Shown: piece after piece, positions 42,602 through 60,307 of the stretch | How the letters are laid out: every line of letters begins with the position of its first letter | How positions within the stretch are numbered: position 1 is the first letter of the stretch | From: Candidatus Aminicenantes bacterium | Lineage (GTDB): Bacteria; Acidobacteriota; Aminicenantia; Aminicenantales; Saccharicenantaceae | Assembly (NCBI GenBank): GCA_034679465.1 | Contig: JAXDAV010000075.1 | Location: forward strand, 12,912-76,911 | Length of the DNA: 64,000 nt | Reading direction: 5' to 3' | Translations under genes and position numbers: made by a program | Notes under the pieces: model-generated | What the model saw: only the letters and a program-made list of their open reading frames with translations | What the model was told of the DNA's origin: nothing | The model's database searches: none

Positions 42602-42624
42602 TTCGTTCCTCCTGTTCTCCAGAC

Positions 42625-42633
42625 ATTATAGCA
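42625..42633 (-). promoter_or_regulatory. extended -10 promoter for the OMP gene
   Basis: Minus strand reads TGCTATAAT, upstream of the AGGAGG RBS. Confidence 0.5.
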
Positions 42634-42737
42634 AAATCTATGCCAGGTCTTCCCGCCCCCCGCCCAGGGAAGGCGTCCCGAGGGGCCTGTGCCCAAAACA
42701 GGTCAGGTGTCCTCCTGGGGCGGGACGCCCGGCATGT

Positions 42738-42766
42738 TTGACTTTTGGACAGGGGGCGGATACCAT
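42738..42766 (+). promoter_or_regulatory. sigma70 promoter for tsaC
   Basis: TTGACT, 17-nt spacer, TACCAT. Confidence 0.6.
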
Positions 42767-42785
42767 CCCCGAAAGAAGGCCCGCC

Positions 42786-43430: not shown

Positions 43431-43445
43431 AGACCGGGAAAGCTC

Positions 43446-43474
43446 GGGGACACGTGCCGGAGGGGCATGTCCCC
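43446..43474. repeat. GGGGACA/TGTCCCC hairpin between convergent tsaC and metG
   Basis: GGGGACACGTGCC...GGCATGTCCCC; shares the 10-mer GGGGACACGT with position 33086. Confidence 0.55.
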
Positions 43475-43483
43475 CTCACGCGA

Positions 43484-45448
43484 CTATTTGACGACGGCGC
43501 CCGGCGCGATGTCGCGGTCGAAGAAGGGGATGAGGGCCTTGTTATCGGGCGTGATGGCGGCCAGGAGCATGGCCTGGGATTCGATGCCCCGGATGACGGC
43601 CGGCTTGAGGTTGACGATGACGATGAGCTTCTTGCCGACCAGGTCCTCGGGAGCGTAGGTCTCGGCGATCCCGGCGACCATCTGGCGCTGCTCCGCGCCC
43701 AGGTCGATCTTGAGCTTGAGGATCTTGGTCGCGCCGGGGACCCGCTCGGCCTCGGTGATCAGGGCCACCCGCAGGTCCATTTTTCGGAATTCGTCGTAGC
43801 TGATCTGATCCATGGCGATGACTCCCTTCGTCGTCGATTCGGGGCCCGGAGCGGGCGCGGCGGCCGCCGCGCCGGGCTCCTCGCCCAGGAAATCCCTCAA
43901 GGCCACCCTCGGGAAGAGCGCCTGCGGCATCCCGACCTCGCGGCCGGGGCCGAAACCGCCGAAGTCCAGCGTCTCCCAGGCGACCTCGGAGGGCTTCCGC
44001 GCCTCGCCCAGGAAGCCCCAGATCCTCTCGACCGACCGGGGCATCACCGGGAACGCGAGGTAGCTCGCCCCGCGGATCGCGGCCGCGGCCTGGAGAAGGA
44101 CGCGGGCCAGCCGCGGCCTCTTCTCCGGGTCCTTGGCCATGATCCAGGGCTGGTTGTCCGCGAGATACTTGTTGACCAGGCCGATGTAGGCCCAGATCTC
44201 CTCCAGGGCCTTGTTGAGGGCGCAGGCGCCGTAGAGGTCGAAGGCGCGGCCTTTGAGCCGGTCGAAATCCGTCCGCACCTTCGCGTCCTCGGCCGTCTCG
44301 GCCGCGGGGTCCGCGATCGCGCCGCCGAAGTAATTGCCGATCATCGTCAGGGTCCGCTGGACGAGGTTGCCGAAATCGTTGGCCAGGTCGGAGTTGACCC
44401 GGTGGAGGAAGCCCTCGTGGGAGAAGTTGCCGTCCTGGCCGATGGGGATCTCGCGGAGGAGGAAGTAGCGCAGGGGATCCGGCCCGAAGACCTTCAGCAG
44501 GACGTGCGGATCGAGGACGTTGCCCTTGGACTTGGACATCTTGGTGTCGTCCTTGAGCCACCAGCCGTGGCCGTAGACCGTGAGCGGCAGCGGCAGGCCC
44601 GAGGCCATGAGGAAGGCGGGCCAATAGACGGCGTGGAACCTCAGGATGTCCTTTCCGACGAGGTGGACGTCGGCCGGCCAGAACTTCTCGAAGCGCCCCA
44701 TGTCCCAGTCGTAGCCGATGGCCGTGACGTAGTTGTGGAGGGCGTCGAACCAGACGTAGATGGTGTGCTTGGGGTCGCCCGGCACCGGGACGCCCCACTT
44801 GACCGTCGTCCGGGTGATGCTCAGGTCCTTGAGCCCGCCGCGGACGAAGCGGACCACCTCGTTCAGCCGGCTCTGCGGCCGGACGAACTCGGGGCGCTCC
44901 CGGTAGAGCTTCAGGAGCCGGTCCTGATAGGCCGAGAGACGGAAGAAGTAGGTCTCCTCGGAGACGACCGAGGCCTTCTTGCCGCAATCGGGGCAGGTCT
45001 TACAGCCGTCGGGACCGAGGGCCGCGTCGTCCGGCAGGAAGTTCTCGTCGGAGACGCAGTACCAGCCCTTGTATTCGCCTTTGTAGATGTCGCTGCTGTC
45101 GAGGAGCCGCTGGAAGAGCTTTTGGACGCCCTTCTCGTGGAGCTCCATGGTCGTCCGGACGAAAAAATCGTACTCGATGTCCAGGGCCTTCCAGAGGTCC
45201 CGGGCCCGGCCCACGACCGAGTCGGCCAGGGCCTTGGGCGTCAGGCCCTTCTCGGCCGCCGCCCTCTCGATCTTCTGGCCGTGTTCGTCCGTCCCGGTCA
45301 GGAAGAAGACATCCCGGCCGGCCAGCTTGTGGAAGCGGGCCAGGGCGTCGGCGATGATGGTCGTATAGGCGTGCCCGATATGGGGCACGTCGTTGACGTA
45401 GTAGATCGGCGTCGTGACGTAGAACGTCTTTTTAGAGCTCGTTGACAT
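43484..45448 (-). CDS. metG: methionine--tRNA ligase with C-terminal tRNA-binding OB domain
   Basis: [30 protein letters not shown]. Confidence 0.97.
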
Positions 45449-46013
45449 TGATGGGTCCTCCCCGGATGAGCATCATGGCCTCGGCCCGCGTCGCCGGGTT
45501 CTTCCGGAACGAGCCGCGGACGGCCGAGGTCACCGTGATCGACTTGGGCTTTTTCGCCCCGCGCATGGACATGCACATGTGCTCGGCCTCGATCACGACC
45601 ATGACGCCCAGGGGCTCGAGGTGCTTGTCGAGCAGGTCGGCGATCTGTTTCGTCAACCGCTCCTGGACCTGGAGCCGCCTGGACAGGGCCTCCACCACCC
45701 GGGCGATCTTGCTCAGGCCGACGATGCGCCCGGATTTCGGAATATAGGCCACATGGGCCACTCCCGCGAAGGGGAGGAGATGGTGCTCGCACATCGAGTA
45801 GAGGGGGATGTTCTTGATGAGGACCATTTCGTCGTGCTTCTCGTCCTCGATCGTCCGGAGGTTCCGAATCGCCTCGCCCTCCGAGCCGCCGAGGATCTCG
45901 GCCAGCATGCGGGCCACGCGCCGGGGGGTGGCCCGGATGCCGGCGCGGCGGGGGTCCTCGCCGACGCCCTCGAGGATGAGGCTGACGCCGCGCTCGATCT
46001 TCTTGGTGTCCAT
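45432..46013 (-). CDS. folE: GTP cyclohydrolase I
   Basis: [38 protein letters not shown]; start ATG 46013. Confidence 0.95.
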
Positions 46014-46035
46014 CGGGGTCCTTCCGTCCGCGCCG

Positions 46036-47205
46036 CTAGCGCTTCCTGGTGAATTGGCAGACGGCGTGATGGGCGATCTCCTTGAGAGGCCGGCCGGTCT
46101 CGCGCGCCGCCTTGAGCGCGTCCTCGTACTCCGGCTGAACGTTGACAATCCGCCCGTCCAGGGAGGCCAGCTTGAGGCCGACCTTCCGGCCGTGGACGCA
46201 GACGGTCCGGACCTCGCGCTCGAGGACGCGCCGGCCGACGGGATAATACCGGACCCCGATCGAGGTCGTTTCGCGGAACACCGCTTCGATCAGGGCGTCC
46301 AGGCGGGCGGACTCGACGAGGAGCGAGAGCTTTGTGCCCAGGCGGTTCTTCTTCATGACCACGGGGGAGAGAGTGGCGTCCAGGGCGCCTTCCTCGAGGG
46401 CCCGCTCGAGGAAGTGGGCCAGGAGCTGGGGCGTCGCGTCGTCGACCGTGGCCTCGACGATGAAGACGCTTTTCGCCTGGTCGAAGGCGGCGGCGTCGCC
46501 GAGATAGACCCTGAGGAGATTGGGGATCTCGGGGAATTCCTTGGTCCCGGCGCCGCGGCCGATCTTGTCATAGACGAGCTCGGGGAGCTTTGTGAACCGC
46601 TTCGTCAGGGCCGCGACGATGGCCGCGCCCGTCGGCGTCACGAGCTCCGACTCGACCCAGGCGGAATAGACGGGCGCCTTCTTCAGGAGCTCGGCGACCG
46701 CAGGCGGGGGAACGGCCAGCCGGCCGTGCGAAGTGTTGACCCAGCCCGAGCCGACGTTGAGCGGCGAGCAGTAGACCTCCGAGACGCCCAGCTCCTCGAG
46801 GAGAAAGGCCGTCCCGACGATATCGACCAGGGCGTCGTCGGCCCCGGCCTCGTGGAGGTGTGTTTCCCGGAGCTTGCGGCCGTGGACCTTGGCCTCGGCC
46901 TCGAACAGCCGTTTGAAGACGAGGAGGGCCCGGTCCTTGACGGCCGGCTTGAACCGGCTCCTGAGCACGATCCCCTCGATGTCGGCGAAGTCCCGGGCAA
47001 CGTGATCGCGCCGCCGGACCTCGACATCGACCTTGACCGCCGCGAAACCGCCCCGGCGCGTCCGCCGGACGGCGATCCCGACGGGCAGGCGAAGCCCGGC
47101 CATCTTCTCCTTGAACAGGGCCGGGTCGACCCCCAGGTCGAGGAGCGCGCCGAGGCACATGTCTCCGCTCAGTCCCGAGGAGGCGTCGAGATAGACGTAT
47201 CTCAT
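46036..47205 (-). CDS. larC: nickel-pincer cofactor biosynthesis protein LarC
   Basis: [51 protein letters not shown]. Confidence 0.9.
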
Positions 47206-47306
47206 GGTTCGCTTAGGATATCGTTTTCGCCGGAAAAATGCAAAATGGAGGACGGCGGGTGTTGACCCGCCCGACCGAAAAAGGTATATGGAATCGAGGA
47301 GGATCC

Positions 47307-48197
47307 ATGGCCGGGACCAAGAAAACGCGGCCGCCTCGGGCGGAGATCGGCATTCTGGGCGGGACCGGGCTCTACGAGATCGACGGCTTCCGGAACACGC
47401 GCGAGGTCCGCCTGGGCACGCCTTTCGGCGCCCCTTCCTGCGCCTATGTCGTCGGCACGCTCGAAGGCCGCCGGGTGGCCTTTTTGGCGCGCCATGGCAA
47501 GGGCCACACGCTCCTCCCGGCCGAGGTCAACTACCGGGCCAACATCTATGGATTCAAGAAGTTGGGCGTCTCGAGCCTGATCTCGGTCAACTCGGTCGGC
47601 TCGCTCCGCGAGGCGATCCGCCCGCGGGACATCGTCCTCCCGGACCAGTTCTTCGACCGGACCCGGCGGCCGAACACGTTCTTCGGCGGCGGGATCGTGG
47701 CCCACGTCAGTCTGGGCCGTCCGGTCTGCCCGTCTCTCGCGCGGACCCTGTATGAAGCGGCCGCCGGGCTGGGGCTCAGGGCCCATCGCGGCGGGACCTA
47801 CGTCTGCATCGACGGCCCGGCCTTCTCGACCAAGGCCGAGTCTCTCGCCTACCGGCTCTGGGCCGGCGATGTCATCGGCATGACCGCCGCGACCGAGGCC
47901 AAGCTCTGCCGCGAGGCCGAGATCTGCTACGCCACCCTGAGCCTGGTCACGGACTACGATGTCTGGCACGAGACCGAGGAGCCGGTGACGGTCGAGCTCG
48001 TCCTCCGGAACCTGTCGGCCAATATCGCCAACGCCAAGGCCGTCATCAAGAAGGCCCTGACGGCGCCGGGGAAGGACGAGGAGCCGGGTTGCGATTGCGG
48101 CTCGGCCCTCGAGAACACGATCGTGACCGCCCCGGCCGCCGTGCCGGCGGCGACGAGGAAGAAGCTGGGGCTCCTCGTCGGCAAGTACCTCGGCTGA
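47307..48197 (+). CDS. mtnP: S-methyl-5'-thioadenosine phosphorylase
   Basis: GILGGTG, ARHG, NYRANI, GPAFSTKAES, GMT, VTDYD; GAGGAGG RBS. Confidence 0.92.
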   Translation: MAGTKKTRPPRAEIGILGGTGLYEIDGFRNTREVRLGTPFGAPSCAYVVGTLEGRRVAFLARHGKGHTLLPAEVNYRANIYGFKKLGVSSLISVNSVGSLREAIRPRDIVLPDQFFDRTRRPNTFFGGGIVAHVSLGRPVCPSLARTLYEAAAGLGLRAHRGGTYVCIDGPAFSTKAESLAYRLWAGDVIGMTAATEAKLCREAEICYATLSLVTDYDVWHETEEPVTVELVLRNLSANIANAKAVIKKALTAPGKDEEPGCDCGSALENTIVTAPAAVPAATRKKLGLLVGKYLG

Positions 48198-48217
48198 GAG
48201 GGCTGAAACACACGCTC

Positions 48218-49126
48218 ATGAGCCTGGTCATCGTCGGTTCTGTCGCCTTCGACACCATCCGGACCCCCTGGGGCGACCGGGAGAAGATCGTCGGCGGCTC
48301 CGGGACGTACTGCTCGCTCGCCGCCAGCTGCTTCACCCGGCCCCGCATCGTCGGCGTCGTCGGCCGGGACTTCCCGAGGAAAACGATCGCCCTGCTCCGT
48401 TCGCGCGGCGTCGATCTGGCCGGCCTCAAGGTCAAGGCGGGCCGGACCTTCCACTGGGAAGGGAAGTACGAGGACGATCCCAACCGCCGGACGACCCTGC
48501 GGACCGAGCTCAACGTCTTCGCCGACTTCCGCCCGGAGATCCCCGCGCCCTATCGCGGCTCGCGCATCGTCTACCTGGCCAACCTCAATCCGGAGCACCA
48601 CGACTTCATCCTGAGGCAGTTCCGCGCCCCGGCCCTGGTGGCCATGGACACGATCCGGCTCTGGATCGACACGAAGCGCGAGGCCCTCCTCAAGGAGCTG
48701 GGGCGGGTCGACATCTATTTCGCCAACGACGAGGAGGCCCGGCTCGTCACCGGGGAGGCCAATCTCATCGCCGCCGGAAAGGCCTTGGTCGGGCTCGGCC
48801 CCTCGCTCGTCGTTCTCAAGAAGGGCGAGCACGGGGCGCTTGTCTTCAGTCGGGATTTCGTCTTCGGCGCCCTGGCCCACCCCTGCGATCATGTCATCGA
48901 TCCGACCGGGGCCGGGGACAGCTTCGCCGGCGGCTTTCTCGGCCACCTCGACGGGGTGCCGGGCCGGGCCGGCCTGGCCGGCCGCGACGTCCGCCGGGCC
49001 GCGGTCTACGGCAGCGTCATGGCCTCGTTCGCGATCGAGGATTTCGGGATCGGCCGGCTCCTGTCGCTCGACCGAGACCTGGTCGAGGCCCGCTTCCGGC
49101 AGTTCCGCAAGATGACGACGTTCTGA
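48218..49126 (+). CDS. PfkB-family carbohydrate/nucleoside kinase
   Basis: GGSG, NDEEA, KKGEHGA, DPTGAGDSFAGG. Confidence 0.9.
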   Translation: MSLVIVGSVAFDTIRTPWGDREKIVGGSGTYCSLAASCFTRPRIVGVVGRDFPRKTIALLRSRGVDLAGLKVKAGRTFHWEGKYEDDPNRRTTLRTELNVFADFRPEIPAPYRGSRIVYLANLNPEHHDFILRQFRAPALVAMDTIRLWIDTKREALLKELGRVDIYFANDEEARLVTGEANLIAAGKALVGLGPSLVVLKKGEHGALVFSRDFVFGALAHPCDHVIDPTGAGDSFAGGFLGHLDGVPGRAGLAGRDVRRAAVYGSVMASFAIEDFGIGRLLSLDRDLVEARFRQFRKMTTF

Positions 49127-49171
49127 GAGCGATCGTCCCGGCCCGGCCGGGCTCAGCGAGGGAGGAATCGA

Positions 49172-50554
49172 ATGCCAGACATCAAGCCGCCCATGGAGCC
49201 TTTCCGCATCAAGACGGTCGAGCCGATCCGCGCCACCTCGCGACGAGAGCGGGAGTCCCTGCTCAAGGCGTCGGGCTTCAACCCGTTCGGCATCCCGGCC
49301 GAGAAGGTCACGATCGACCTCCTGACCGATTCGGGCACGTCGGCCATGAGCGACGACCAGTGGGCCGGGATCATGACCGGCGACGAGTCCTACGCCGGGG
49401 CACGCAGCTTCTTCCGTCTCGAGGAATCCGTCCGGTCGGTCTTCGGCTTCAGTCATGTCATCCCCACCCATCAGGGACGGGCGGCCGAGCGGGTCCTCTT
49501 CGGCTCGATCCTCAAGAAGGGGGACAGCGTCCCGAGCAATATCCATTTCGATACGACCCGGGCCAACATCGAGGTCCTCGAGGCCCGGGCCGAGGACCTG
49601 GCCGCCGCCCCGGCCTACGACCCCGACGCGGACCTGCCCTTCAAAGGCGACATCGACGTCGCCAAGCTCAAAAAGCTCATCGACAAGCGCGGGGCGGACA
49701 AGGTCCCGCTGGTCATGATGACCGTGACCAACAACAGCGGCGGCGGCCAGCCGGTCTCGCTCAAGAACATCAAGGAGACGAGCGAGCTCTGCGCCCACTG
49801 CGGCGTCCCGTTCTTTTTCGACGCCTGCCGCTTCGCCGAGAACGCCTGGTTCATCAAGAAGCGGGAGAACGGCTACGCCAAGAAGAGCGTCCTCGAGATC
49901 GCCCAGGAGATGTTCTCCTACGCGGACGGGGCGACCATGAGCGGCAAGAAGGACGCCCTGGTCAACATCGGCGGCTTCGTCACCCTCGACGACGACGCCC
50001 TGGCCGAGAGGATCAAGAACAACCTCATCATCAGCGAGGGCTTCCCGACCTACGGCGGCCTGGCCGGCCGCGACCTCGAGGCCATGGCCCGGGGCCTGAA
50101 GGAGGCGCTCGACGAGGATTACCTTGAGCACCGGACGGGCCAGGTGGCCTACCTCGGCGGGCTCCTGGCCGCGGCCGGCGTGCCCGTCTTCAAGCCCTTC
50201 GGCGGGCACGCGGTCTATATCCTGGCCGACCGCTTCCTGCCCCACCTCCGCCGGGCCCAGTATCCGGGCTGGGCCCTGACCGTGGCTCTCTACCGCGAAT
50301 ACGGCATCCGGGCCGTCGAGATCGGCGGGGTCATGTTCGGGCAGAAAACGGGCAAGGGGAAGGCCGAGACGTTCCCGGAGCTGGAGCTCGTCCGGCTGGC
50401 CATCCCGCGGCGGGTCTACACGGCCTCACACCTGCGCTACGTCGCCGAGGCGCTCATCGATCTCCACAAGAACCGGGACAAGGTCAAGGGATTGCGGATC
50501 GTCCGGGAGTCCCCGTTCCTGCGGCACTTCACCGCCAGACTGGAGGAGGTCTGA
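49172..50554 (+). CDS. tnaA: tryptophanase
   Basis: DLLTDSGT, HQGR, MSGKKD PLP lysine. HFDTT and LRHFTA match tryptophanase rather than tyrosine phenol-lyase (FTTT / LRFFTA). Confidence 0.85.
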   Translation: MPDIKPPMEPFRIKTVEPIRATSRRERESLLKASGFNPFGIPAEKVTIDLLTDSGTSAMSDDQWAGIMTGDESYAGARSFFRLEESVRSVFGFSHVIPTHQGRAAERVLFGSILKKGDSVPSNIHFDTTRANIEVLEARAEDLAAAPAYDPDADLPFKGDIDVAKLKKLIDKRGADKVPLVMMTVTNNSGGGQPVSLKNIKETSELCAHCGVPFFFDACRFAENAWFIKKRENGYAKKSVLEIAQEMFSYADGATMSGKKDALVNIGGFVTLDDDALAERIKNNLIISEGFPTYGGLAGRDLEAMARGLKEALDEDYLEHRTGQVAYLGGLLAAAGVPVFKPFGGHAVYILADRFLPHLRRAQYPGWALTVALYREYGIRAVEIGGVMFGQKTGKGKAETFPELELVRLAIPRRVYTASHLRYVAEALIDLHKNRDKVKGLRIVRESPFLRHFTARLEEV

Positions 50555-50564
50555 GAGGTCGGCT

Positions 50565-51305
50565 TCAGATCTTGATCCGTTCGGAAGGTTCGACCCGGAG
50601 GTCGAGACTGCCGATGCCGGCGTCGATGTCGACCTCGATCGTGACGGGGCTCTTCCCGTAGGCGTCGTTGATCCAGGCCCCGGACTGCTTGGTCAGGCCG
50701 TGGGCGTTGACCGAGCCGAGCCCGCCGTCGACCTTGACCCGCACCCCGACCTCGGAGGGCAGGGTGAGCTTGCCGCTGCCGATCCCGCCGTCGATCTTGA
50801 CCAGGAAGCCGGCCGCGCGCGGCCCGCGCAGATCGATCTCCGTCTCGCCGACGCCCATATCGATATCGACCCGCTCGATCGTCAGTCCCCGCAGGTCGAT
50901 CTCGCTCCGGCCGGCGCCGAGGTCGATCTTGAGGTCGAGGGGCACCGAATCGCCGAGGGTGAGGTCCCAGCGGTTCCGGGCCGGGCCGAGGCTGACGCCG
51001 TGCCTCCGGGGGTGACGGACCTCCAGGATGCCCTTGTCGCCGAAGAGCCGGTAGTCGACCTCGGGGCGGTTGCGCTCCCGGCTGAACTCGAACGAGGCCT
51101 CGAGCAGGGCCGCCTGGGAGGCGCCCCTGAGCCGCATCTCCCCGGCCCCCATGTTCAGGCGGACCTCGACCCGACCGGCCCCTTCGAGGTCGATCGTGCT
51201 CGTTTCCGTCATCGCATACCGGGAATCCCGGGGCTCGTCGCAGGCGGCGAGAACCCCGATCAGAAAGGGGATCACGAACCCGATCTTTGCGCGCGTCAGA
51301 GACAT
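50565..51305 (-). CDS. toast-rack (DUF2154/LiaG-like) lipoprotein
   Basis: Lipobox LAAC; repeated xGxG beta units (MGAG, LGAG, MGVG, GGIG, GGLG, AGIG). Confidence 0.7.
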   Translation of the reverse strand: MSLTRAKIGFVIPFLIGVLAACDEPRDSRYAMTETSTIDLEGAGRVEVRLNMGAGEMRLRGASQAALLEASFEFSRERNRPEVDYRLFGDKGILEVRHPRRHGVSLGPARNRWDLTLGDSVPLDLKIDLGAGRSEIDLRGLTIERVDIDMGVGETEIDLRGPRAAGFLVKIDGGIGSGKLTLPSEVGVRVKVDGGLGSVNAHGLTKQSGAWINDAYGKSPVTIEVDIDAGIGSLDLRVEPSERIKI

Positions 51306-51442
51306 GGCCGACCTCCGTCCGAGGGAATAGGGAATAAGGCTTTCTCTCACCTATACGGAACGGGCCGGCGCCGGGTTCCCTTCGGGTCCTGGCGGCCCGG
51401 ACGAAGGGCGAGCCCCGTCGCCCGGCCCGCCCCAGGCCCGGT

Positions 51443-52735
51443 TCAGGCGCGCCCGCCGCGGCCGTTCCAGGCGTAGGCGCCGATATCGAGGAAGCCGTGC
51501 CCGCTCAGGTTGAAGAGGATCGACCGCTCGCGGCCGTCCCTCTTGGCGGCCAGGGCCTCGTCGATGGCGACGGAGATCGCGTGGGACGATTCGGGCGCCG
51601 GCAGGATGCCCTCGGTCCTCATGAACAGGACGGCCCGGTCGAAGACGGTCTTCTCGTCGACGGCCCGCGGCTCCACGATGCCGGCGTCGGCGAGGTGGCT
51701 GACGAGAGGCGCCATGCCGTGGTAGCGGAGCCCGCCCGCGTGGAGCGGCGGCGGGACGAACTCCCGGCCCAGCGTGTGCATGTAGAGAAGGGGCGTCAGG
51801 CCGACGCTGTCGCCGGAGTCGTACCGCAGCGCGCCCTTCGTCAGCGAGGGGCAGGCCTCGGGCTCGACGGCGATGAAGCGCGTCCTCCTTTCGCCCCTGA
51901 GGTTGTGCCGGACAAAAGGGAAGGCCAGGCCGGCGAAGTTCGAGCCGCCGCCGACGCAGCCGATGACCGTATCGGGGAAGGCGTCCAGCTCCTCCATCTG
52001 CCTCTCGGCCTCGAGCCCGATGACCGTCTGGTGCATGAGAACGCCGTCGAGGACCGAGCCGAGCGCATACTTGACGCCGGGGGACGTGACCGTGACTTCG
52101 ACCGCTTCGGCGATGGCGATGCCGAGACTGCCGGGGTGATCGGGGTCCCGATCGTAGAATCCGCGGCCGGCCTCCGTCGTCGGGCCGGGGCTTTCGAGGA
52201 CCGCGCCGCCGAACATCTCCATGATGACGCGGCGGCCGGGCTTCTGGCGGAAGCTCGACCGGACCATGAAGATGCGGGTCTCGACGCCGAAACGTGAGCC
52301 GGCGTAGGCGAGAGCCGATCCCCATTGGCCGGCCCCGGTTTCCGTGGCCAGCGTCTTGACGCCGTCCTCGGCGGCCAGATAGGCCTGCATGAGGGCCGTG
52401 TTCGTCTTGTGGCTGCCGACCGGCCCGACGCCTTCGTACTTGTAGAAGATGCGGGCGGGCGTGTCGAGGGCCCTTTGGAGGGCCGTCGCTTCGATGAGGG
52501 GTGTCGGCCGGAAGACCTCGTAAGCCTCGATGACCGGCCCGGGGATGGGGACGTCACGGTCGGTCGCCAATTCCTGGCGGATGAAGCTTTTCGGGAAGAT
52601 GGGTTCGAGGTCCTCGGGCTTGAGGGGGTCTCCGGTCCGGGGATGGAGGGGCGGATTGGGCGGGGAGGGGAGATCGGCCTTGATGTTGTAGAAGGCCCGG
52701 GGCAGGAATTCCTTTTTTCGCGATGCGAAGCGCAT
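51443..52735 (-). CDS. trpB2: TrpB2-type tryptophan synthase beta (stand-alone)
   Basis: YKYEG, GSHKTN, TETGAGQWGS, GSLGIA, GGGSN, HAGGLRYHG, APESSHA; start ATG 52735. Confidence 0.9.
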   Translation of the reverse strand: MRFASRKKEFLPRAFYNIKADLPSPPNPPLHPRTGDPLKPEDLEPIFPKSFIRQELATDRDVPIPGPVIEAYEVFRPTPLIEATALQRALDTPARIFYKYEGVGPVGSHKTNTALMQAYLAAEDGVKTLATETGAGQWGSALAYAGSRFGVETRIFMVRSSFRQKPGRRVIMEMFGGAVLESPGPTTEAGRGFYDRDPDHPGSLGIAIAEAVEVTVTSPGVKYALGSVLDGVLMHQTVIGLEAERQMEELDAFPDTVIGCVGGGSNFAGLAFPFVRHNLRGERRTRFIAVEPEACPSLTKGALRYDSGDSVGLTPLLYMHTLGREFVPPPLHAGGLRYHGMAPLVSHLADAGIVEPRAVDEKTVFDRAVLFMRTEGILPAPESSHAISVAIDEALAAKRDGRERSILFNLSGHGFLDIGAYAWNGRGGRA

Positions 52736-52896
52736 GATGGTCGTTGTCCTTTCGCGACGGCTTGACCGTCGTTTTCGCCGGGGTGCTTGGCTCCGGGAAG
52801 GCGGGCCCGTGAAGAGGGAACGCTCCCACGGGGGACCGTCCCTCATGCGGCGGGCGCACCTGTCCCCAAAAAAGGGAGGGGGCGGGGGGAACGGAC

Positions 52897-52983
52897 TTAT
52901 CGGGCGGTTGGGACCGCCCGCCAGTTCCAAAGCCGGGAGGACAGCGCGACGCCGTGAGCGTGAAGGTCCTTCAGGCTGTCCAT
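52897..52983 (-). CDS. putative Trp leader peptide (TrpL-like, 28 aa) upstream of trpB2
   Basis: MDSLKDLHAHGVALSSRLWNWRAVPTAR*; two Trp codons followed immediately by a GC hairpin. Confidence 0.7.
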   Translation of the reverse strand: MDSLKDLHAHGVALSSRLWNWRAVPTAR

Positions 52984-52992
52984 TTCCGAGGC

Positions 52993-53021
52993 ATCATAAG
53001 CCCGGCCGGCTTCTTTGTCAA
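52993..53021 (-). promoter_or_regulatory. sigma70 promoter for the leader peptide and trpB2
   Basis: Minus strand TTGACA (53021-53016), 17-nt spacer, TATGAT (52998-52993). Confidence 0.8.
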
Positions 53022-53099
53022 GCTCGTCGGCCTGTTTGTTGGCATGTCGGTGCGGGGCGGGCTTCGGCCGATCGCGGCCCGGCAAGCCGTCCCCGGGAC

Positions 53100-53585
53100 T
53101 CAATACCGGCTCTTGCCCGGCATGGCGATCCAGGAGTCGAAGAGCCCCTGGCACTCGGCGCGCATGAATCCCGGCACGAGCGTGATCCCGCTGCGGCCCA
53201 GCGCCTTCAGCCGCGCGTTCGAAATCTCAAGCTCGCGGAAGCCGGCCCGGGCGGCGTCCCGGATGCCGGCGCCGAAATAGACCGTGCCGATGCGGGCCCA
53301 GTGGATCGCCCCGAAGCACATCGGGCAGGGCTCGGTCGTCGAATAGATCTCGCAGCCGCTGAGGTCGAAGGTCCCGAGCTTCTTCGAGGCCTTGCGGATG
53401 GCGTTGATCTCGGCGTGGCAGGTCGCGTCGTCCCGCAGGACGGTGTTCCGGGCCACGGCCAAGACCCGGCCGTCCTTGATGATGCAGGCGCCGAACGGCC
53501 CGCCGTCCGGCCGGACCAGGTTCTTCCCGGCCTCTCGGATGGCTTTGAGCATGAACCGGCGGTCGGGTTCGGGCGGTTTCGTCAT
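53100..53585 (-). CDS. cytidine-deaminase-fold nucleobase deaminase (GuaD-like)
   Basis: GGPFGA, HAEINAIR, EPCPMC. Confidence 0.85.
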   Translation of the reverse strand: MTKPPEPDRRFMLKAIREAGKNLVRPDGGPFGACIIKDGRVLAVARNTVLRDDATCHAEINAIRKASKKLGTFDLSGCEIYSTTEPCPMCFGAIHWARIGTVYFGAGIRDAARAGFRELEISNARLKALGRSGITLVPGFMRAECQGLFDSWIAMPGKSRY

Positions 53586-53717
53586 CGGATTCCTCCAGGC
53601 CGGATGAGACCGGATTATACCCGGTTGACCGCCGCGACGGAAATCTGATTAAATAACGGCCATGAGGCGTTCAGGGGAGGGGAAGGCCGACGGGCCCACG
53701 ATCGAATAGGAGAGACC

Positions 53718-55082
53718 ATGAGCAACGAGAACACGAATCAAAGCCGGCGGGATTTCCTCAGGATCGGGGCGGCCGCCGGTCTGGGGGCGGCCGTGGCCGG
53801 GCTCGGCCTCGAGGCCAAGGGCGCGTCGCCGGCGCCCGGCGAAGCCCGATCGCAATTCACGGCTCCGGCCATTCCCACCGTCCGGGTGGGATTCGTCGGG
53901 GTCGGCGGCATGGGCTCGGTCCACGTCAGGAACCTCCTGAACATCGACGGCGTCGAGATCCGGGCCGTCTGCGATATCGTCCCGGCCAAGGTCGAACGGG
54001 CCCAGAAGTGGGTCGTCGAGGCCGGTCAGCCGAAGCCCGCCGGCTATGCGAACGGGCCGCGGGATTTCGAGCGCCTCTGCGCTTCCGAGGACCTCGACCT
54101 CGTCTTCACCGCCACGCCTTGGGAGTGGCACGTGCCGGTCTGCCTGGCCGCGATGCGGAACGGCAAGCACGCCGCGACCGAGGTGCCCGCGGCCATGTCC
54201 CTCGAGGACTGCTGGGCCCTCGTCGAAACGGCCGAGAAGACCAAGAGGCACTGCCAGATGATGGAGAACTGCTGCTACGATCGGATCGAGCTCATGACCC
54301 TGAACCTCGTCCGCCGGGGCCTGCTCGGCGAGGTCCTCCACGGCGAGGCCGGCTACCTCCACGACCTGCGCGAGGTCAAATTCTCGAGCCAGGGCGAAGG
54401 GCTGTGGCGCCGGGCCTGGTCGCAGAAATTCGACGGCAACCTCTATCCGACCCACGGGCTCGGCCCCGTGGCCCAGTGCCTGAACGTCAACCGCGGCGAC
54501 GCGCTCGACTATCTCGTCTCGATGAGCTCCCCGGCGCGCGGCCTCCATGAATACGCCGTGGCCGCGTTCGGCGCCGACTCGCCGCAGGCGAAAGAGCGCT
54601 ACGCCCTCGGCGACGTCAACACCAGCCTCATCAAGACCAAGCTCGGCAAGACGATCATCCTCATCCACGACACCAACCTGCCGCGGCCCTACACCCGCAT
54701 CAACCTCGTCCAGGGCACCCGGGGACTGGCCCACAAGTGGCCCGACCGGATCTACATCGAAGGAAAGGCCGAGAAGCCCCACCGGTGGGACGATTTCGAG
54801 AAGCTTGCGGCCGAGTTCGAGCACCCGCTCTGGAAGTCCATCGCGGCGAAGGGGGAGGGGCGGGGACACGGCGGCATGGACTACATCGAGGACTACCGGC
54901 TGATCCAGTCGCTCCGCAGGGGCGAGCCGCTCGACCAGGACGTCTATGACGCGGCCGCCTGGAGCGCCGTCGTCGGCGCCAGCATCAAGAGCGTCGAGGC
55001 CAAGGGCCGGCCGGTCGAGATCCCCGATTTCACCCGGGGCCAGTGGAAGACCAATCCGCCCCTCGGCATCATCGAGGCCTGA
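53718..55082 (+). CDS. Tat-exported GH109 / Gfo-Idh-MocA NAD-dependent glycosidase
   Basis: SRRDFLR Tat motif, GVGGMG, TPWEWH, ENCCY, YPTHGLGP, GHGGMD. Confidence 0.87.
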   Translation: MSNENTNQSRRDFLRIGAAAGLGAAVAGLGLEAKGASPAPGEARSQFTAPAIPTVRVGFVGVGGMGSVHVRNLLNIDGVEIRAVCDIVPAKVERAQKWVVEAGQPKPAGYANGPRDFERLCASEDLDLVFTATPWEWHVPVCLAAMRNGKHAATEVPAAMSLEDCWALVETAEKTKRHCQMMENCCYDRIELMTLNLVRRGLLGEVLHGEAGYLHDLREVKFSSQGEGLWRRAWSQKFDGNLYPTHGLGPVAQCLNVNRGDALDYLVSMSSPARGLHEYAVAAFGADSPQAKERYALGDVNTSLIKTKLGKTIILIHDTNLPRPYTRINLVQGTRGLAHKWPDRIYIEGKAEKPHRWDDFEKLAAEFEHPLWKSIAAKGEGRGHGGMDYIEDYRLIQSLRRGEPLDQDVYDAAAWSAVVGASIKSVEAKGRPVEIPDFTRGQWKTNPPLGIIEA

Positions 55083-55107
55083 CGCGGGGCGGCGAAAGCG
55101 GCGCGTC

Positions 55108-56085
55108 ATGATACGGAAGATCGCATCGCTCGGCCTCGTCCTTCTGGCCGGCCTGGCCTGCTCGAACGGACGGGACCGGAACGTCATCAGCGCGTCGGGG
55201 ACGATCGAGGCGGTCGAGGTCCGCGTCGCCTCCAAGGTCACGGGCCAGCTCCTCACGCTCGCCGTCGATGAAGGGGCGAGGGTCAAACCGGGGGATGTCC
55301 TGGCCACGATCGACCACGCCACGGCCGACATCCAGCTGCGCCAGGCCGAGGCCGGGGTCCGGCTGGCCGAGGCCCAGCTGGCCCTCCTCGTCAAGGGGGC
55401 GAGGAGCGAGGACATCCGGCAGGCCGAGGCGGCCCTACGCCAGGCCGACGCCGCCCTCAAGGTCGCCGCCGACGACGCCCGGAGGATGCGCGGTCTTTTC
55501 GCCACGGGGAGCGTCACATCGAAACAGCATGACGACGCCGAAGCCCGCCTGACCGTCGCCTCGGCCCAGCAGAGCGCGGCCGGCGAGGCCCTGAACAAGG
55601 TCCGCCGGCTGGCCCGGCCGGAGGAGATCCAGGCCGCCGAAGCGCGCCTGGCCCAAGCCCGGGCCGCGGCGGACCTGCTGGCCAAGGCGATCGCCGACTC
55701 GACCATCATCGCCCCCGCCGGCGGCATGGTCACCCACAAGGCCGCCGAAGCGGGCGAGCTCGTCACCCCGGGGACGACGGTCTTCACCCTGGCCGATCTC
55801 GACAGCGTCTATGTCATGATCTTCGTCACCGGGCCCGAGATCGGTCGGATCAGGCTCGGCGGCGACGTCGAGGTCCGCATCGACGCTTTCCCCGACAGGC
55901 CCTTCATGGGGAAGATCACCTACATCTCGCCCGAAGCCGAATTCACGCCCAAGAACGTCCAGACGAAGGAGGACCGGGTCAAGCTCGTCTTCGGGGTCAA
56001 GGTCGAGATCCCCAACCCGGACGGCCTGCTCAAGCCGGGCCTGCCGGCCGACGCCACGATCCGGGTCGCCCCGGAAGGCCTCTGA
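55108..56085 (+). CDS. HlyD-family membrane fusion protein (YbhG-like)
   Basis: SGTIEA, coiled-coil hairpin, AEFTPKNVQT, LKPGLPA. Confidence 0.88.
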   Translation: MIRKIASLGLVLLAGLACSNGRDRNVISASGTIEAVEVRVASKVTGQLLTLAVDEGARVKPGDVLATIDHATADIQLRQAEAGVRLAEAQLALLVKGARSEDIRQAEAALRQADAALKVAADDARRMRGLFATGSVTSKQHDDAEARLTVASAQQSAAGEALNKVRRLARPEEIQAAEARLAQARAAADLLAKAIADSTIIAPAGGMVTHKAAEAGELVTPGTTVFTLADLDSVYVMIFVTGPEIGRIRLGGDVEVRIDAFPDRPFMGKITYISPEAEFTPKNVQTKEDRVKLVFGVKVEIPNPDGLLKPGLPADATIRVAPEGL

Positions 56086-56100
56086 GAAGGGCGCCGGCCC

Positions 56101-57054
56101 ATGGGCCCGTTCGCCGTCGAAACCCGCGGGCTCTCGAAGCGCTTCGAGTCCGTCGAGGCCGTCCGCCCGCTCGACCTCGCGGTCCGCGAGGGGGAGATGT
56201 TTGCGCTCGTCGGCCCGGACGGCGCGGGCAAGACGACGACGATCCGCATGCTCTGCGGGCTCCTCCCGCCCACGGCGGGTGAGGCCGCGGTGCTGGGCTT
56301 CGATCTCGTCCGGCAGGCCGGGGAGATCAGGACCCGCATCGGCTATCTGTCCCAGAAATTCAGCCTCTACCGCGACCTGACCGTCGACGAGAACATCGAG
56401 TTCTTCGCCGAGATCCATCGCGTCCCGGATTTCCGCAAGCGCCGCGAGGAGCTGCTCGCGTTCACCCGGCTCACTCCCTTTCGCAACCGGCTGGCCGAGC
56501 GCCTCTCGGGCGGCATGAGCCGGAAGCTCGCCCTGGCCTGCACCCTTGTCCACGCGCCCCGGCTGATCTTCCTCGACGAGCCTACGACCGGCGTCGATCC
56601 GGTCTCGCGGCGCGACTTCTGGGCCATCCTCTCGGCCCTTCTCAAAGACGGGGTGACGATCGTCATGTCCACGCCCTACATGGACGAAGCCGAGCGGTCG
56701 TCGCGGGTCGGGCTCATGGCCGCGGGTCGGCTCATCGCCGCCGACACCCCCCGGGCGGTCAAGGCCCTGATGCGGGGCACGGTCGTCGAGATCGTCTGCC
56801 CCGACATCCGCCGGGCCTTCGGCGTCCTGAAGGCCCTGGCCGGCGTCCGCGAGGTCCAGCTCTTCGGGGACCGGCTGAACGTTGTCGTCGACGACCCCGA
56901 CACGCGGATCCCCCGGATCCGGGCCGCTCTGGGCGGCGCCGGAATCCCCGTCCTGGCCGAACGGCGCCTCGCGCCGTCCCTCGAAAACGTGTTCATCTCC
57001 ATCACCGCACCCGTTCGAGAGGGCGGGTCGCCCGCGGGACCGCCGGGGAGCTGA
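56101..57054 (+). CDS. ABC transporter ATP-binding protein
   Basis: GPDGAGKTT, LSGGM, LDEPTTGVDP. Confidence 0.92.
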   Translation: MGPFAVETRGLSKRFESVEAVRPLDLAVREGEMFALVGPDGAGKTTTIRMLCGLLPPTAGEAAVLGFDLVRQAGEIRTRIGYLSQKFSLYRDLTVDENIEFFAEIHRVPDFRKRREELLAFTRLTPFRNRLAERLSGGMSRKLALACTLVHAPRLIFLDEPTTGVDPVSRRDFWAILSALLKDGVTIVMSTPYMDEAERSSRVGLMAAGRLIAADTPRAVKALMRGTVVEIVCPDIRRAFGVLKALAGVREVQLFGDRLNVVVDDPDTRIPRIRAALGGAGIPVLAERRLAPSLENVFISITAPVREGGSPAGPPGS

Positions 57055-57081
57055 GGGCGGGGAGAGAGGGGAGAAGGGACC

Positions 57082-58011
57082 GTGCCCGAGCCTTCGATCG
57101 TCGTCAGGTCGCTGACCAAGAGGTTCGGCGGCTTCACGGCGGTCGACGCCGTCAGCTTCGACGTCCGCCGCGGCGCGATCTTCGGCTTCCTCGGTGCCAA
57201 CGGGGCGGGCAAATCGACGACCATCCGCATGCTCTGCGGCCTGCTCGATCCGACCTCGGGGACGGCCACGGTCGGCGGGTTCGACGTCGGCCGCGAGCCC
57301 GAGCGGATCAAGCGGGTCATCGGCTACATGTCCCAGAAGTTCTCCCTCTACGAGGACCTGACCGTTCTCGAGAACATCCGCTTCTTCGGCGGGGTCTACG
57401 GGCTCCCGTCCAAGGTCCTCCAGGCGCGGCTCCCCTGGGTCCTCGAACTGGCCGGGCTCAACGGCCGCGAGCGGAGCCTGACCCGGACGCTCTCGGCCGG
57501 CTGGAAGCAGCGCCTGGCCCTCGGCTGCGCCGTCCTCCACGAGCCCGAGATCGTCTTCCTCGACGAGCCCACGGGCGGCGTCGACCCGGCCTCCCGCCGC
57601 CGCTTCTGGGAGCTCATCAACGGGCTCTCCGAGCGCGGGGTCACCGTCTTCGTCACGACCCATTACCTCGACGAGGCGGAGTACTGCAACGACATCCGCC
57701 TCATCCACGCCGGACGGATCGTCGCCGGGGGCGGTCCGCGCGAGCTCAAGGCGGAGATCATCCGCCACCCCATCCTCGAGGTCGCGACCGACCGGCCCGT
57801 CGACGCCCTCGAAGTCCTCCGCCGGGAGCCCTGGGTGCTGGAGACGTCGATCTTCGGCGCCGCGCTCCACGTCGGCGTCGCCGACGAGGCGGAAGGCCGT
57901 CGCCTCATCCTGGCCCGCCTGGCCCGGGAAGGCATCGTGCCGGACAGGGTCGACCGGATCGTCCCGTCGCTCGAGGACGTCTTCATCCGCAAGATCGAGG
58001 AACAGGCATGA
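57082..58011 (+). CDS. ABC transporter ATP-binding protein
   Basis: GANGAGKST, LSAGWKQR, LDEPTGGVDP, TTHY. Confidence 0.92.
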   Translation: MPEPSIVVRSLTKRFGGFTAVDAVSFDVRRGAIFGFLGANGAGKSTTIRMLCGLLDPTSGTATVGGFDVGREPERIKRVIGYMSQKFSLYEDLTVLENIRFFGGVYGLPSKVLQARLPWVLELAGLNGRERSLTRTLSAGWKQRLALGCAVLHEPEIVFLDEPTGGVDPASRRRFWELINGLSERGVTVFVTTHYLDEAEYCNDIRLIHAGRIVAGGGPRELKAEIIRHPILEVATDRPVDALEVLRREPWVLETSIFGAALHVGVADEAEGRRLILARLAREGIVPDRVDRIVPSLEDVFIRKIEEQA

Positions 58012-59183
58012 AAGCCCCGCCGCGCGCCTTCATCGGCCCGGTCATGCGGAAGGAGGTCCGCCAGATCCGGAGGGACACCCGCTCGCTTGTCTTCATGCTC
58101 CTCCTCCCGGCCTTCCTGCTCATCGTGTTCGGCCTCGCCCTGAACTTCGACATCAAGCACGTTCCCCTGGCCGTCGTCGACCTCGAGGGCAGCCGCCTCA
58201 GCCGCGGGCTGGTTGAGAAGTTCCGGACGACGGAATATTTCGACGTCAAGGCGACGCTCGACCGGACCGGGGACATCGACGACCTGATGGCCCGGGAGAA
58301 GATCAAGGCCGCCCTGGTCATCCCCCCGACCTTCTCCGAGGACCTCCTGGCCGGGCGGAGCCCCTCGGTCCAGTTCCTCCTCGACGGGGCCAACGCCATG
58401 AGCGGCACGACGGCGGCAGGCTACGCGGCGGCCATCCTGCAGAGCTATGCGCAGAGGACGACGCTCGAGGCGCTGGAGCGACGGGGAGCGGGCGGCGCGA
58501 CGCTCCCCCTCGCCACCCAAGTCCGCGTCTGGTACAACCCGGAGCTCAAGAGCGCGCGCTTCCTTCTGCCCGGCCTGATGGCCTTCATCCTCATGGTCAT
58601 CCTGACCACGTCGACGGCCTTCTCCATCGTCCGCGAGAAGGAAAGGGGGACCATGGAACAGCTCGCCGTTTCGCCTCTGCCGGCCTCGGCCCTCATCGTC
58701 GGCAAGCTCGTTCCGTACGTCCTGATCTCCCTGGCCTCGGCCCATCTCGTCCTGGGCCTCGGCGGGGTCCTCTTCGGAGTCGGGGTCAAGGGCAGCTATC
58801 TCCTTCTCCTCCTGGGCATGGTCCTGTTCCTCGTCGCCGGCCTGGGCCAGGGGCTCCTCATCTCGGCCGTCACCCGGACCCAGCAGGTGGCCTTTCTCCT
58901 CTCGGTCCTGACGACCATCCTGCCGACCTTCATCCTGTCCGGGTTCGTCTTCCCGATCCGGAACATGCCCGCGGTCGTTCAGGCCGTGACCTATCTCGTC
59001 CCGGCCCGGCACTTCCTGGTCGTCCTCCGGTCCGTCATCCTCAAGGGCGCCGGGCTCCCGGCCTTCTGGGAGCAGATGCTCCTGCTCGCCGCGTTCGCCG
59101 CCTCGACGCTGGCCCTGAGCGTGGTCATGCTCCGCCGGGGCGAAGGGCGGGGGCCGCGGCGCCGGGCGGGGAGGGCCGCGTGA
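58008..59183 (+). CDS. ABC-2 permease (YbhS-like)
   Basis: WYNPEL, REKERGTMEQL, LSGFVFPI. Confidence 0.9.
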   Translation: MKAPPRAFIGPVMRKEVRQIRRDTRSLVFMLLLPAFLLIVFGLALNFDIKHVPLAVVDLEGSRLSRGLVEKFRTTEYFDVKATLDRTGDIDDLMAREKIKAALVIPPTFSEDLLAGRSPSVQFLLDGANAMSGTTAAGYAAAILQSYAQRTTLEALERRGAGGATLPLATQVRVWYNPELKSARFLLPGLMAFILMVILTTSTAFSIVREKERGTMEQLAVSPLPASALIVGKLVPYVLISLASAHLVLGLGGVLFGVGVKGSYLLLLLGMVLFLVAGLGQGLLISAVTRTQQVAFLLSVLTTILPTFILSGFVFPIRNMPAVVQAVTYLVPARHFLVVLRSVILKGAGLPAFWEQMLLLAAFAASTLALSVVMLRRGEGRGPRRRAGRAA

Positions 59184-60307
59184 AGGCCATCCTGTCCATC
59201 CTCCGGAAGGAGTTCCTCCAGCTCCGCCGCGACCCGAAGCTCTTCCCGGTCATCTTCCTTTCGCCCGTCCTACAGCTCCTCCTCCTGGGCTACGCCGCCA
59301 ACCTCGACGTCAAGAACGTCCCTTCGGTCGTCTGCGACATGGACCGCTCGGCGGCCAGCCGCCGGCTCATCGACGAGTATCTGAACTCCGGTACTTTCAC
59401 GGTCGCGGCCCGCGTCGAGCGCCTGGCCGAGATCGACCGCTATCTCGACAACGGGCGCGCGGCCATGGCCTTGGTCATCCCCCGGGGCTTCGGCGGCGAC
59501 GTGGCCGCGGGCCGGACGGCGTCGATGATGCTCATCGCCGACGGCTCGGAGAGCCAGTCGGCCTCGATCGGCGTCAGCTACGGGACGATGATCGCGGCGC
59601 GACACAACCAGAGGCTCATCCTGGAGCGGCTCGAGCTGGTCCGGGGACTCGGCCCGGCGCCGGTCCTGGTCGAAGCCGAGGTCCGGGTCTGGTACAACCC
59701 GGAGCTGCGCAGCCGCAATTTCATGGTCCCGGGCGTCCTCGGCCTCATCCTGATGATCATGACCACGGTGCTCGCCTCGATCGGCATCGTCCGGGAGCGC
59801 GAGGCCGGGACGATGGAACAGCTGATCGTGACCCCCATCCGGCCGGTCCAGCTCATCGGCGGCAAGCTGCTGCCGTTCGTCGTCATCGGGCTCATCGACG
59901 CGACCTTCGTCATCGCCGTCGCCCGCGGTCTGTTCGGCGTCCCGGTCCGAGGCAGCGTGCCGCTCCTTTTCGGGCTGTCCCTGGCCTTCATGCTCAACAC
60001 CCTCGGGGTCGGCCTTTTCGTCTCGACGATCTCGCGGACGCAGCAACAGGCCATGCTGACGTCGCTCTTCTTCATCCTGCCCCAGATCATGCTCAGCGGG
60101 TTCGTCTTTCCCATCGAGAACATGCCGAAGCTCTTCCAGGCCGTGACGACGGTCGTCCCGCTCCGCTATTTTTTCGTCATCATCCGCGGCATCATGCTCA
60201 AGGGGGCGGGCTGGCGGCACCTCTGGCCCCAGGCCGCGGCCCTCCTGGTCCTGGGGACGCTCATCCTGACCCTGTCCGTCGCCCGCTTCCAGAAGAAGCT
60301 CGACTGA
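59180..60307 (+). CDS. ABC-2 permease (YbhR-like)
   Basis: KEFLQLRRD, WYNPEL, REREAGTMEQL, LSGFVFPIENMP. Confidence 0.9.
   Translation: MKAILSILRKEFLQLRRDPKLFPVIFLSPVLQLLLLGYAANLDVKNVPSVVCDMDRSAASRRLIDEYLNSGTFTVAARVERLAEIDRYLDNGRAAMALVIPRGFGGDVAAGRTASMMLIADGSESQSASIGVSYGTMIAARHNQRLILERLELVRGLGPAPVLVEAEVRVWYNPELRSRNFMVPGVLGLILMIMTTVLASIGIVREREAGTMEQLIVTPIRPVQLIGGKLLPFVVIGLIDATFVIAVARGLFGVPVRGSVPLLFGLSLAFMLNTLGVGLFVSTISRTQQQAMLTSLFFILPQIMLSGFVFPIENMPKLFQAVTTVVPLRYFFVIIRGIMLKGAGWRHLWPQAAALLVLGTLILTLSVARFQKKLD

Follow-up and report, generated by a model that had tools for sequence, protein, structure and literature searches.

We analysed a stretch of 64,000 nucleotides (nt) from a Candidatus Aminicenantes genome (GenBank assembly GCA_034679465.1, contig JAXDAV010000075.1, positions 12,912 to 76,911 of the forward strand; "the window" means this whole stretch) and found that its trpB2 gene is preceded by a short open reading frame (ORF) ending in tryptophan (Trp) codons that directly abut a GC-rich hairpin, P1. 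We consider it highly likely that this leader is a Trp-codon-sensing cis-regulator of trpB2. Judged from comparative sequence data, it is very probably a Trp variant of ribosome-mediated sensing that has a leaderless ORF and no terminator, rests on a single invariant hairpin and lies outside current attenuator models and Rfam. An earlier reading of this DNA from its letters alone (the sequence-only reading) had proposed a TTGACA-17-TATGAT promoter, an ATG 9 nt further on that lacks a Shine-Dalgarno (SD) sequence, a 28-residue ORF and a GC hairpin, and all of the coordinates it gave proved correct. The features that carry the argument are these:

53021-53016, minus strand: -35 box TTGACA, from reading of the sequence and a promoter scan.
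52998-52993, minus strand: -10 box TATGAT, separated from TTGACA by a 17-nt spacer and lying 9 nt 5' of the leader ATG.
52983-52897, minus strand: leader ORF of 28 codons plus stop, translated as MDSLKDLHAHGVALSSRLWNWRAVPTAR with the C-terminal residues LWNWRAVPTAR.
52929-52921, minus strand: sensor codons TGG AAC TGG, with the Trp codons at 52929-52927 and 52923-52921.
52920-52901, minus strand: hairpin P1, an 8-bp GC stem, CGGGCGGT-CCCA-ACCGCCCG, beginning directly after the second Trp codon.
52896-52868, minus strand: purine-poor C/U tract after the leader stop, ending in U6 (52873-52868), a candidate Rho utilization (rut) or standby site.
52751-52745, minus strand: trpB2 SD region AAGGACA (SD AAGGA at 52751-52747), from the sequence.
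52735-51443, minus strand: trpB2, encoding a TrpB-like pyridoxal-phosphate enzyme of 430 residues (NF009057, 633.5 bits, cut-off 366; TIGR01415, 594.6 bits, cut-off 518.85).

In the window, the codon after the second Trp codon is CGG (52920-52918), and in most relatives it is TGG. P1 makes up the last 7 sense codons of the leader ORF, and its 3' end is one base short of the stop codon. The conserved core of P1 is GGGCGG (52919-52914) paired with CCGCCC (52907-52902), and the computed folding energy of P1 with its flanks is -20.5 kcal/mol.

A protein search of 41 relatives (Candidatus Aminicenantes) gave 30 trpB2 loci with flanks. In 30 of these 30 loci, we found a short ORF ending (L/F)W(N)W(W/R)AxxxAx-stop at 65-198 nt upstream of trpB2, with 2-4 Trp codons adjoining a hairpin; as judged across these loci, the recurrence of ORF, Trp codons and hairpin before trpB2 is far beyond chance. 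Apart from the 41-relative set, we also retrieved trpB2 genes from further away in the class. The Trp ORF and hairpin are present at 20 of 20 of those loci with 61-74% protein identity, at 6 of 9 with 50-56% identity, and at 0 of 8 of a paralogue type with 45-47% identity. The sequence-only reading had named conservation of the Trp codons and of the ORF across orthologous leaders as the point to check, and these counts bear it out.

The exact nucleotide motif occurs a single time in the window's genome, at the leader. In a sample of 401 genomes of the phylum, the TGGTGG form of the motif was confined to this lineage: within the order it occurred in 7 of the 16 further genomes, within the class in 1 of 22, and in the remainder in 0 of 362. 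A reversed control pattern gave 1 match in the 401 genomes. A scan of one genome per species across 185,579 species gave at least 120 stretches with the motif, 80 of them with flanks. In 43 of these 80 listed stretches, a trpB2 start follows the motif at a distance of 57-166 nt, and the other 37 are mostly matches that end in TGG (not in a stop) inside GC-rich coding sequence. Two of the 37, L058 and L059, are leader-like, yet gave no trpB2 match, and L058 has little downstream sequence. Pooling gave 74 unique leaders, 24 from the same genus and 50 others. The 43 leaders found by the exact motif have an invariant P1 by construction, and the unbiased set is the 30 plus 29 protein-anchored loci; the leader sequences are also mutually related, so statistics across leaders overstate their independence. 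Among 67 leaders, the number of Trp codons is 2 in 32, 3 in 29 and 4 in 6. In a crude scan of the window's genome for a promoter followed by an ATG, we found 35 candidate leaderless short ORFs, and the trpB2 leader alone has at least 2 Trp codons near its end.

Several records of metagenome-assembled genomes (MAGs) titled "uncultured Eubacteriales" or "Clostridia" carry an Aminicenantes-type leader (L043, L052, L056, L059, L076, L084, L092, L097, L109, L112, L113 and L118). In all of these except L059, which has no trpB2 match, TrpB2 is 58-85% identical to that of the window, and the taxonomic labels of these records are probably wrong.

The gene behind the leader is a stand-alone trpB2, as the sequence-only reading had called it. 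The trpB2 product scores 136.9 bits with the canonical trpB model TIGR00263, below the cut-off of 392.45. In the window's genome, which is 95.7% complete, we found no match for trpA, trpC (indole-3-glycerol-phosphate synthase) or trpD, each of whose models matched in 14 of 14 control genomes. A TrpB2 query of the same genome returned no second TrpB-type gene, and therefore the genome has no canonical trpB. Because trpA, trpC, trpD and canonical trpB were not found, we call trpB2 stand-alone, and its product would probably make Trp from scavenged indole (indole salvage). For the TrpB2 of Thermococcus kodakarensis, Trp formation from scavenged indole is reported (Hiyama 2014, as cited in PMC11085991). 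Across the 41 related genomes, trpA is present in 1 (G029) and missing from the other 40, the window's genome counted among these. In G029 (C40:12438-14205), which belongs to the same order, the sole trpB-type match (E 2e-29, in the canonical range) directly adjoins trpA and there is no TrpB2-level match, so that its distribution is complementary to that of the leader-trpB2 unit.

We found that the nucleotides of the leader are constrained more tightly than the peptide. The sequence TGG TGG GCG Gnn nnn nCC GCC Cnn is invariant across the 30 loci found by protein search: GGGCGG-N6-CCGCCC is fixed in 30 of 30, while the loop of six bases varies freely and the encoded residues vary with it (VPT, ASP, DPT, GSS, DSS, EHS and others). 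Both Ala codons (GCG and GCC) are without variation at their synonymous positions, and the last leader residue is R, L or Q with the first base of its codon always C. The position of the stop codon varies as well: L035, L194, L195 and L177 have it within the loop, one clade has it one codon earlier, and two families have it 3 or 4 codons later. Nine loci of more distant clades have the stem variant CCGCCU, in which a terminal G.U pair is retained. Three divergent leaders have a different geometry or stem (a 4-nt loop in L184, the stem GGCGGG/CCCGCC in L185, and an unrelated 7-bp stem, GUUCCGC/GCGGAAC, in L177), and each divergent stem is self-complementary and adjoins the Trp codons. Variable residues and stop codon, fixed synonymous sites and self-complementary stem variants speak for an RNA hairpin, and against both a sequence-specific arrest peptide and a DNA operator, although the stem, being invariant within the order, offers no covariation there.

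The arrest-peptide explanation is that WWAxxxAx acts as TnaC does, sensing free Trp in the exit tunnel, stalling at the stop codon and blocking Rho, so that trpB2 would be on at high Trp. In 71 of 72 leaders, 7 codons separate the stop from the last Trp position, a C-rich tract follows the stop directly as it does in tnaC, and a tryptophanase-like gene (49172-50554) lies 900 nt away, all of which fit this view. We nevertheless give it very little credence. Residues between WW and the stop vary while synonymous nucleotides are fixed, the stop shifts relative to WW in other clades (WWAA-stop, WWAAPSA-stop, WWAGSPALSTL-stop), and some leaders (L184, L185) have a single Trp. A Trp-forming enzyme that is on at high Trp would also be hard to reconcile with the physiology of an organism whose genome lacks trpA, trpC and trpD.

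If GGGCGG-N6-CCGCCC were instead an inverted repeat in DNA, bound by a dimeric repressor that acts as a roadblock, the ORF would be incidental. The half-sites are invariant without covariation in 30 of 30 loci around a variable 6-bp spacer, which is typical of a protein-binding palindrome, and a different palindrome, ATGTTTCT-N6-AGAAACAT, is found at the promoters of some divergent trpB2-type genes. We regard an operator as very improbable, given that in 72 of 74 leaders the reading-frame register between the motif and the Trp codons, start codon and promoter is constant, that CCGCCT in 9 loci breaks the DNA symmetry while retaining the G.U pair, and that the stems of L177 and L185 differ yet are self-complementary beside the Trp codons, as the loop of L184 differs with 4 nt.

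The palindrome ATGTTTCT-N6-AGAAACAT is perfect and lies just after a TTGACA promoter in L178, L179, L183 and L185 (trpB2-type, 50-56% identity). It precedes a Trp leader in L178, L179 and L185 and stands alone in L183. In appearance it is a protein operator, and if it is one, this clade may be under dual control.

The leader ORF appears to be read from the very start of its transcript. TTGACA-17-TATGAT is the only sigma-70-like site in 51000-54500, where it matches at 11 of 12 positions and shuffled sequences have a mean of 0.2 sites, and it ranks best among the 3 such sites of 40001-60000. Between its -10 box and the leader ATG (52983-52981) lie 9 nt, GCCTCGGAA, with no SD. In 67 of 74 leaders, a TANNNT box is found 5-10 nt before an in-frame ATG (mostly 9 or 7 nt), as compared to 68 of 2130 (3.2%) other ATGs of the same loci. 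Of the 67 leaders with this -10 box, 65 have TTG at 16-18 nt from it and 1 has an SD-like motif before the leader ATG; L019 and L029 have no in-frame ATG. With the -10 box 5-10 nt 5' of the ATG, the predicted transcription start is therefore at the ATG or a few bases from it, and the sequence supports translation of the leader ORF as a leaderless mRNA, in agreement with the "essentially leaderless" transcript of the sequence-only reading. The leader frame is open further 5', up to a GTG at 53154 within the end of a deaminase gene (53100-53585), which is why the ORF listing gives an ORF of 85 residues (52897-53154, minus strand). We take the 28-codon form as the relevant leader ORF because the -10 box and the ATG are conserved.

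We found no hairpin with a U-run that would serve as an intrinsic terminator. There are 0 such sites in 51000-54500, and among the 74 leaders none has a hairpin abutting the U-run, which lies 21-30 nt beyond P1 with purine-poor sequence between them (15-24 nt past the stop in most leaders from outside the genus). In two 20-kb stretches of the window, terminator-like sites are about as frequent as in shuffled sequence (16 vs 13.9 and 14 vs 9.5). The sequence-only reading had seen no clean terminator here and had left control as Rho-dependent or translational; both remain leading readings. It had also noted that the 5' arm, GGCGGGCG (52923-52916), can pair alternatively with CGCCCGCC (52856-52849). 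This pairing is possible in the window sequence, but it is not conserved: only 5 of the 24 leaders of the genus and 2 of the 50 from elsewhere have the partner found at 52849-52856. A larger hairpin that would reach the U-run, in a coaxial or terminator role, was considered and rejected; its 5' flank is pyrimidine-rich like the tract.

These results bear on a classical attenuator of the trpL type, with terminator and antiterminator alternatives. A tandem-Trp short ORF beside a hairpin, a U-run downstream and the second partner for the 5' arm in the window are what such an attenuator would have. However, the U-run is not paired with an abutting hairpin in any of the 74 leaders, the shortest leaders (57-65 nt from stop to trpB2) have no second hairpin, and an Rfam cmscan of 52000-53700 (E<=10) gave 6 chance-level matches, the best with E 1.4, with no leader family and none on the leader strand. 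Because the terminator and a conserved alternative pairing are absent, as is the second hairpin in the shortest leaders, we rule against the classical 1:2/2:3/3:4 scheme and find it scarcely credible here.

The fold of the leader includes three more elements:

52928-52888, minus strand: lower stem around P1, GGAAC (52928-52924) with GUUCC (52892-52888), from RNAalifold (19 genus sequences) and single-sequence folds.
52950-52938, minus strand: candidate anti-SD within the ORF, GUCG (52950-52947) and UGUCCU (52943-52938), complementary to CGAC (52743-52740) and AGGACA (52750-52745).
52771-52755, minus strand: pre-SD hairpin CGACGG-UCAAG-CCGUCG, from the sequence and folding.

The 5' strand of the lower stem, GGAAC, is formed by Trp and Asn codons, and the stop codon lies in an internal loop; the stem shows no covariation, both strands being nearly invariant within the genus. 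Compensatory changes maintain the pre-SD hairpin within the genus (ACGACG/CGUCGU, AUGACG/CGUCAU, CGGCG/CGCCG and ACGGCCC/GGGCCGU), whereas the short leaders of other genera lack it. At the trpB2 SD, the genus sequences read GAAAGGA without exception (24 of 24). The fold of the whole leader is not unusually stable (z = -1.38; 16 of 200 shuffles equally stable). Between the tract and the pre-SD hairpin, the spacer at 52790-52860 (minus strand) is variable and contains at least one GGGACGGUCCCC-like unit similar in sequence to P1. Such units are also present in L008, L012, L015, L016 and L017 (L017 has even GGUGGGCGGUCCCC), and other genus members are without them.

The explanation that we favour is translational attenuation by a leaderless Trp leader through masking of the trpB2 SD; taken in full, we see it as finely balanced and just short of probable. 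Transcription from the consensus promoter would begin at or near the leader ATG, and the ORF would be read as a leaderless mRNA. When charged tRNA-Trp is plentiful, the ribosome would reach the stop codon and depart, and P1 would refold. With P1 refolded, the pyrimidine-rich stretch of the ORF 5' of the Trp codons would pair with the trpB2 SD region and trpB2 would be shut; its untranslated RNA would possibly be shortened by Rho. When tRNA-Trp is scarce, the ribosome would stall on the Trp codons, holding P1 open and covering the anti-SD stretch. The ribosome-binding site of trpB2 would then be freed, and TrpB2 would convert scavenged indole and serine into tryptophan. A ribosome awaiting Trp-tRNA must hold P1 open because the Trp codons overlap or touch its 5' arm. 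Judging from the usual footprint size, a ribosome that stalls at the first Trp codon would cover the anti-SD stretch. We infer that trpB2 is induced by Trp limitation, through ribosome stalling and in this direction, and that P1 has a role in the control.

That SD masking is the effector step is a tentative proposal and more open to doubt. The ORF stretch just 5' of the Trp codons is rich in C (36%) and U (36%) and poor in A (7%), and many leader folds pair it with the trpB2 SD, as CCUCCUU:AAGGAGG in other genera. In 15 of 72 leaders, this ORF:SD duplex outperforms shuffled sequences (p<=0.05). Among 41 clusters, cognate duplexes have a mean of -12.5 kcal/mol as compared to -10.8 and -10.9 kcal/mol for non-cognate ones (Wilcoxon p 0.03 and 0.01), and in one clade within the genus GUCG:CGAC is replaced by GCGGU:ACCGC. 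The covariation signal of the anti-SD is suggestive only.

Several observations weigh against SD masking as set out here. When folding was constrained by a ribosome positioned at the Trp codons, SD accessibility went up in 16 of 63 leaders, went down in 16 and was unchanged in the rest, and neither this position nor one at the stop gave a consistent change. Cognate duplexes have no advantage over non-cognate ones in about one in three of the 41 clusters, such as L029, L092, L097, L113 and L147. P1, the purine-poor tract and the U-run are universally conserved, yet none of them has a necessary role in the SD-masking model. Covering of the 5' arm could also leave the 3' arm and tract, which are C/U-rich, free to pair with the purine-rich SD, and the effect would then be the opposite one. 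P1 itself shows no covariation inside the order, because its core is invariant.

The conserved tract is what an explanation through Rho would account for. Here the tract at the leader stop would be a Rho loading site, and the position of the ribosome together with the state of P1 would decide on termination before or within trpB2. The tna operon and mgtA are Rho attenuators under leader-peptide control. In the 30 nt after the stop, the 74 leaders, which come from genomes of very different GC content, have a rut-like composition (C 43%, U 35%, A 13%, G 10%), and the lack of an intrinsic terminator at the locus and in these leaders fits as well. Rho is encoded in the window's genome (TIGR00767, 639 bits, above cut-off). 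A comparable idea was proposed for mycobacterial cys leaders (PMC1262725). However, a ribosome stalled 21 nt before the stop would leave the tract naked and RNA polymerase uncoupled, and so would lead to more Rho termination under starvation; because the stalled ribosome exposes the tract, Rho alone predicts the wrong direction for a biosynthetic gene. We also found no purine-rich partner able to hide the tract; the Trp-codon and 5'-arm region pairs with the post-stop tract about as well as with shuffled tracts (-13.9 vs -13.2 kcal/mol; p<=0.05 in 3 of 74 leaders), and the distance from stop to SD is about 40-45 nt in the shortest leaders. We consider Rho-dependent attenuation a serious but unlikely explanation. 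From our analysis, Rho may merely reinforce SD masking by polarity, as reported for the Ms5788A leader discussed below.

A further alternative takes P1 itself, welded to the Trp codons, together with the post-stop tract as a new ribosome-operated switch that needs no alternative RNA pairing, with P1, either formed or kept open by a stalled ribosome that had initiated without a leader, as the effector. We hold this to be rather improbable. In such a switch, P1 could license Rho or an RNase on the tract, or it could be read by a lineage-specific factor. If true, it would be an undescribed mode of regulating indole salvage in tryptophan auxotrophs.

On the 3' side of trpB2, an ORF of 261 residues (50565-51350, minus strand) directly follows the gene and may be co-transcribed with it; it has a weak match to a LiaF C-terminal domain (22.9 bits, under cut-off). 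Beyond it and convergent with trpB2 lies the gene of the tryptophanase / tyrosine phenol-lyase family (49172-50554, plus strand; NF009709, 669 bits), about 900 nt from the trpB2 end. With trpA, trpC and trpD missing and the NF009709 gene near trpB2, an indole-releasing enzyme would therefore stand beside an indole-consuming one.

The favoured reading of the leader as a ribosome-read Trp gauge would extend ribosome-mediated amino-acid sensing to Aminicenantes (formerly OP8), an uncultivated and environmentally abundant lineage. Of the 41 related genomes, 40 are without trpA, yet most of these keep a stand-alone TrpB2 under putatively tight regulation, a pattern that points to tryptophan auxotrophs that use their neighbours' indole and switch salvage on when tRNA-Trp charging drops. 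The motif is compact and defined by its sequence, and could be used for annotating trpB2 regulation in metagenomes. At about 150-270 nt, the leader is also a tractable test case for gene control by a stalled ribosome without a terminator/antiterminator pair.

We found no published description of the Aminicenantes trpB2 leader in the literature searched, whose coverage leaves most subscription journals outside. In the ermC and cat leader-peptide translational attenuators, a drug-induced stall acts through two defined alternative hairpins (1:2/3:4 vs 2:3) behind SD-led leaders. The proposed likeness is that a ribosome stalled in a short leader ORF would remodel the RNA and expose the SD of the next gene; in contrast to ermC and cat, we found no conserved alternative of the 2:3 type here. 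In E. coli tnaC, free Trp is sensed through a conserved peptide (W12, D16 and P24) and a catabolic gene is induced, a C-rich region follows the stop immediately, and control is Rho-dependent without an intrinsic terminator. Our leader shares with tnaC a Trp-containing leader peptide, a C-rich region at the stop and the lack of an intrinsic terminator, but its peptide residues vary, its conservation lies at the RNA level, and its target is a Trp-forming enzyme.

With enterobacterial trpL (RF00513) and the actinobacterial trp attenuators (PMC1262725), the leader shares a tandem-UGG short ORF before a Trp-biosynthesis gene, a hairpin that involves the sensor codons, and the sensing of charged tRNA-Trp by the speed of the ribosome. 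Unlike that class, it shows neither a terminator hairpin followed by a U-tract nor a conserved antiterminator and gives no Rfam match. Its ORF is predicted to be leaderless, and what it would control is a lone trpB2 in genomes that lack the remaining pathway genes.

The functionally closest described system is Ms5788A of M. smegmatis. According to its report (Canestrari et al., bioRxiv 10.1101/834739), Ms5788A, like other such ORFs of mycobacteria, is a leaderless short ORF with a run of Cys codons, and it exerts translational control, with polar effects, by SD masking without a terminator. In that account, masking of the downstream SD by the RNA of the short ORF, relieved by stalling, was both proposed and tested, whereas in our leader SD masking is suggested by weak computational support. 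The two differ further in that Trp and not Cys is sensed and that the host belongs to the Acidobacteriota (Aminicenantes) and not to the Actinobacteria, and they have no sequence relationship. The invariant GC hairpin abutting the sensor codons and the purine-poor tract past the stop set our leader apart from the Ms5788A model. Like Ms5788A, it lacks an intrinsic terminator and has its regulatory codons near the 3' end of a short ORF, which in our leader too would be leaderless and the first cistron.

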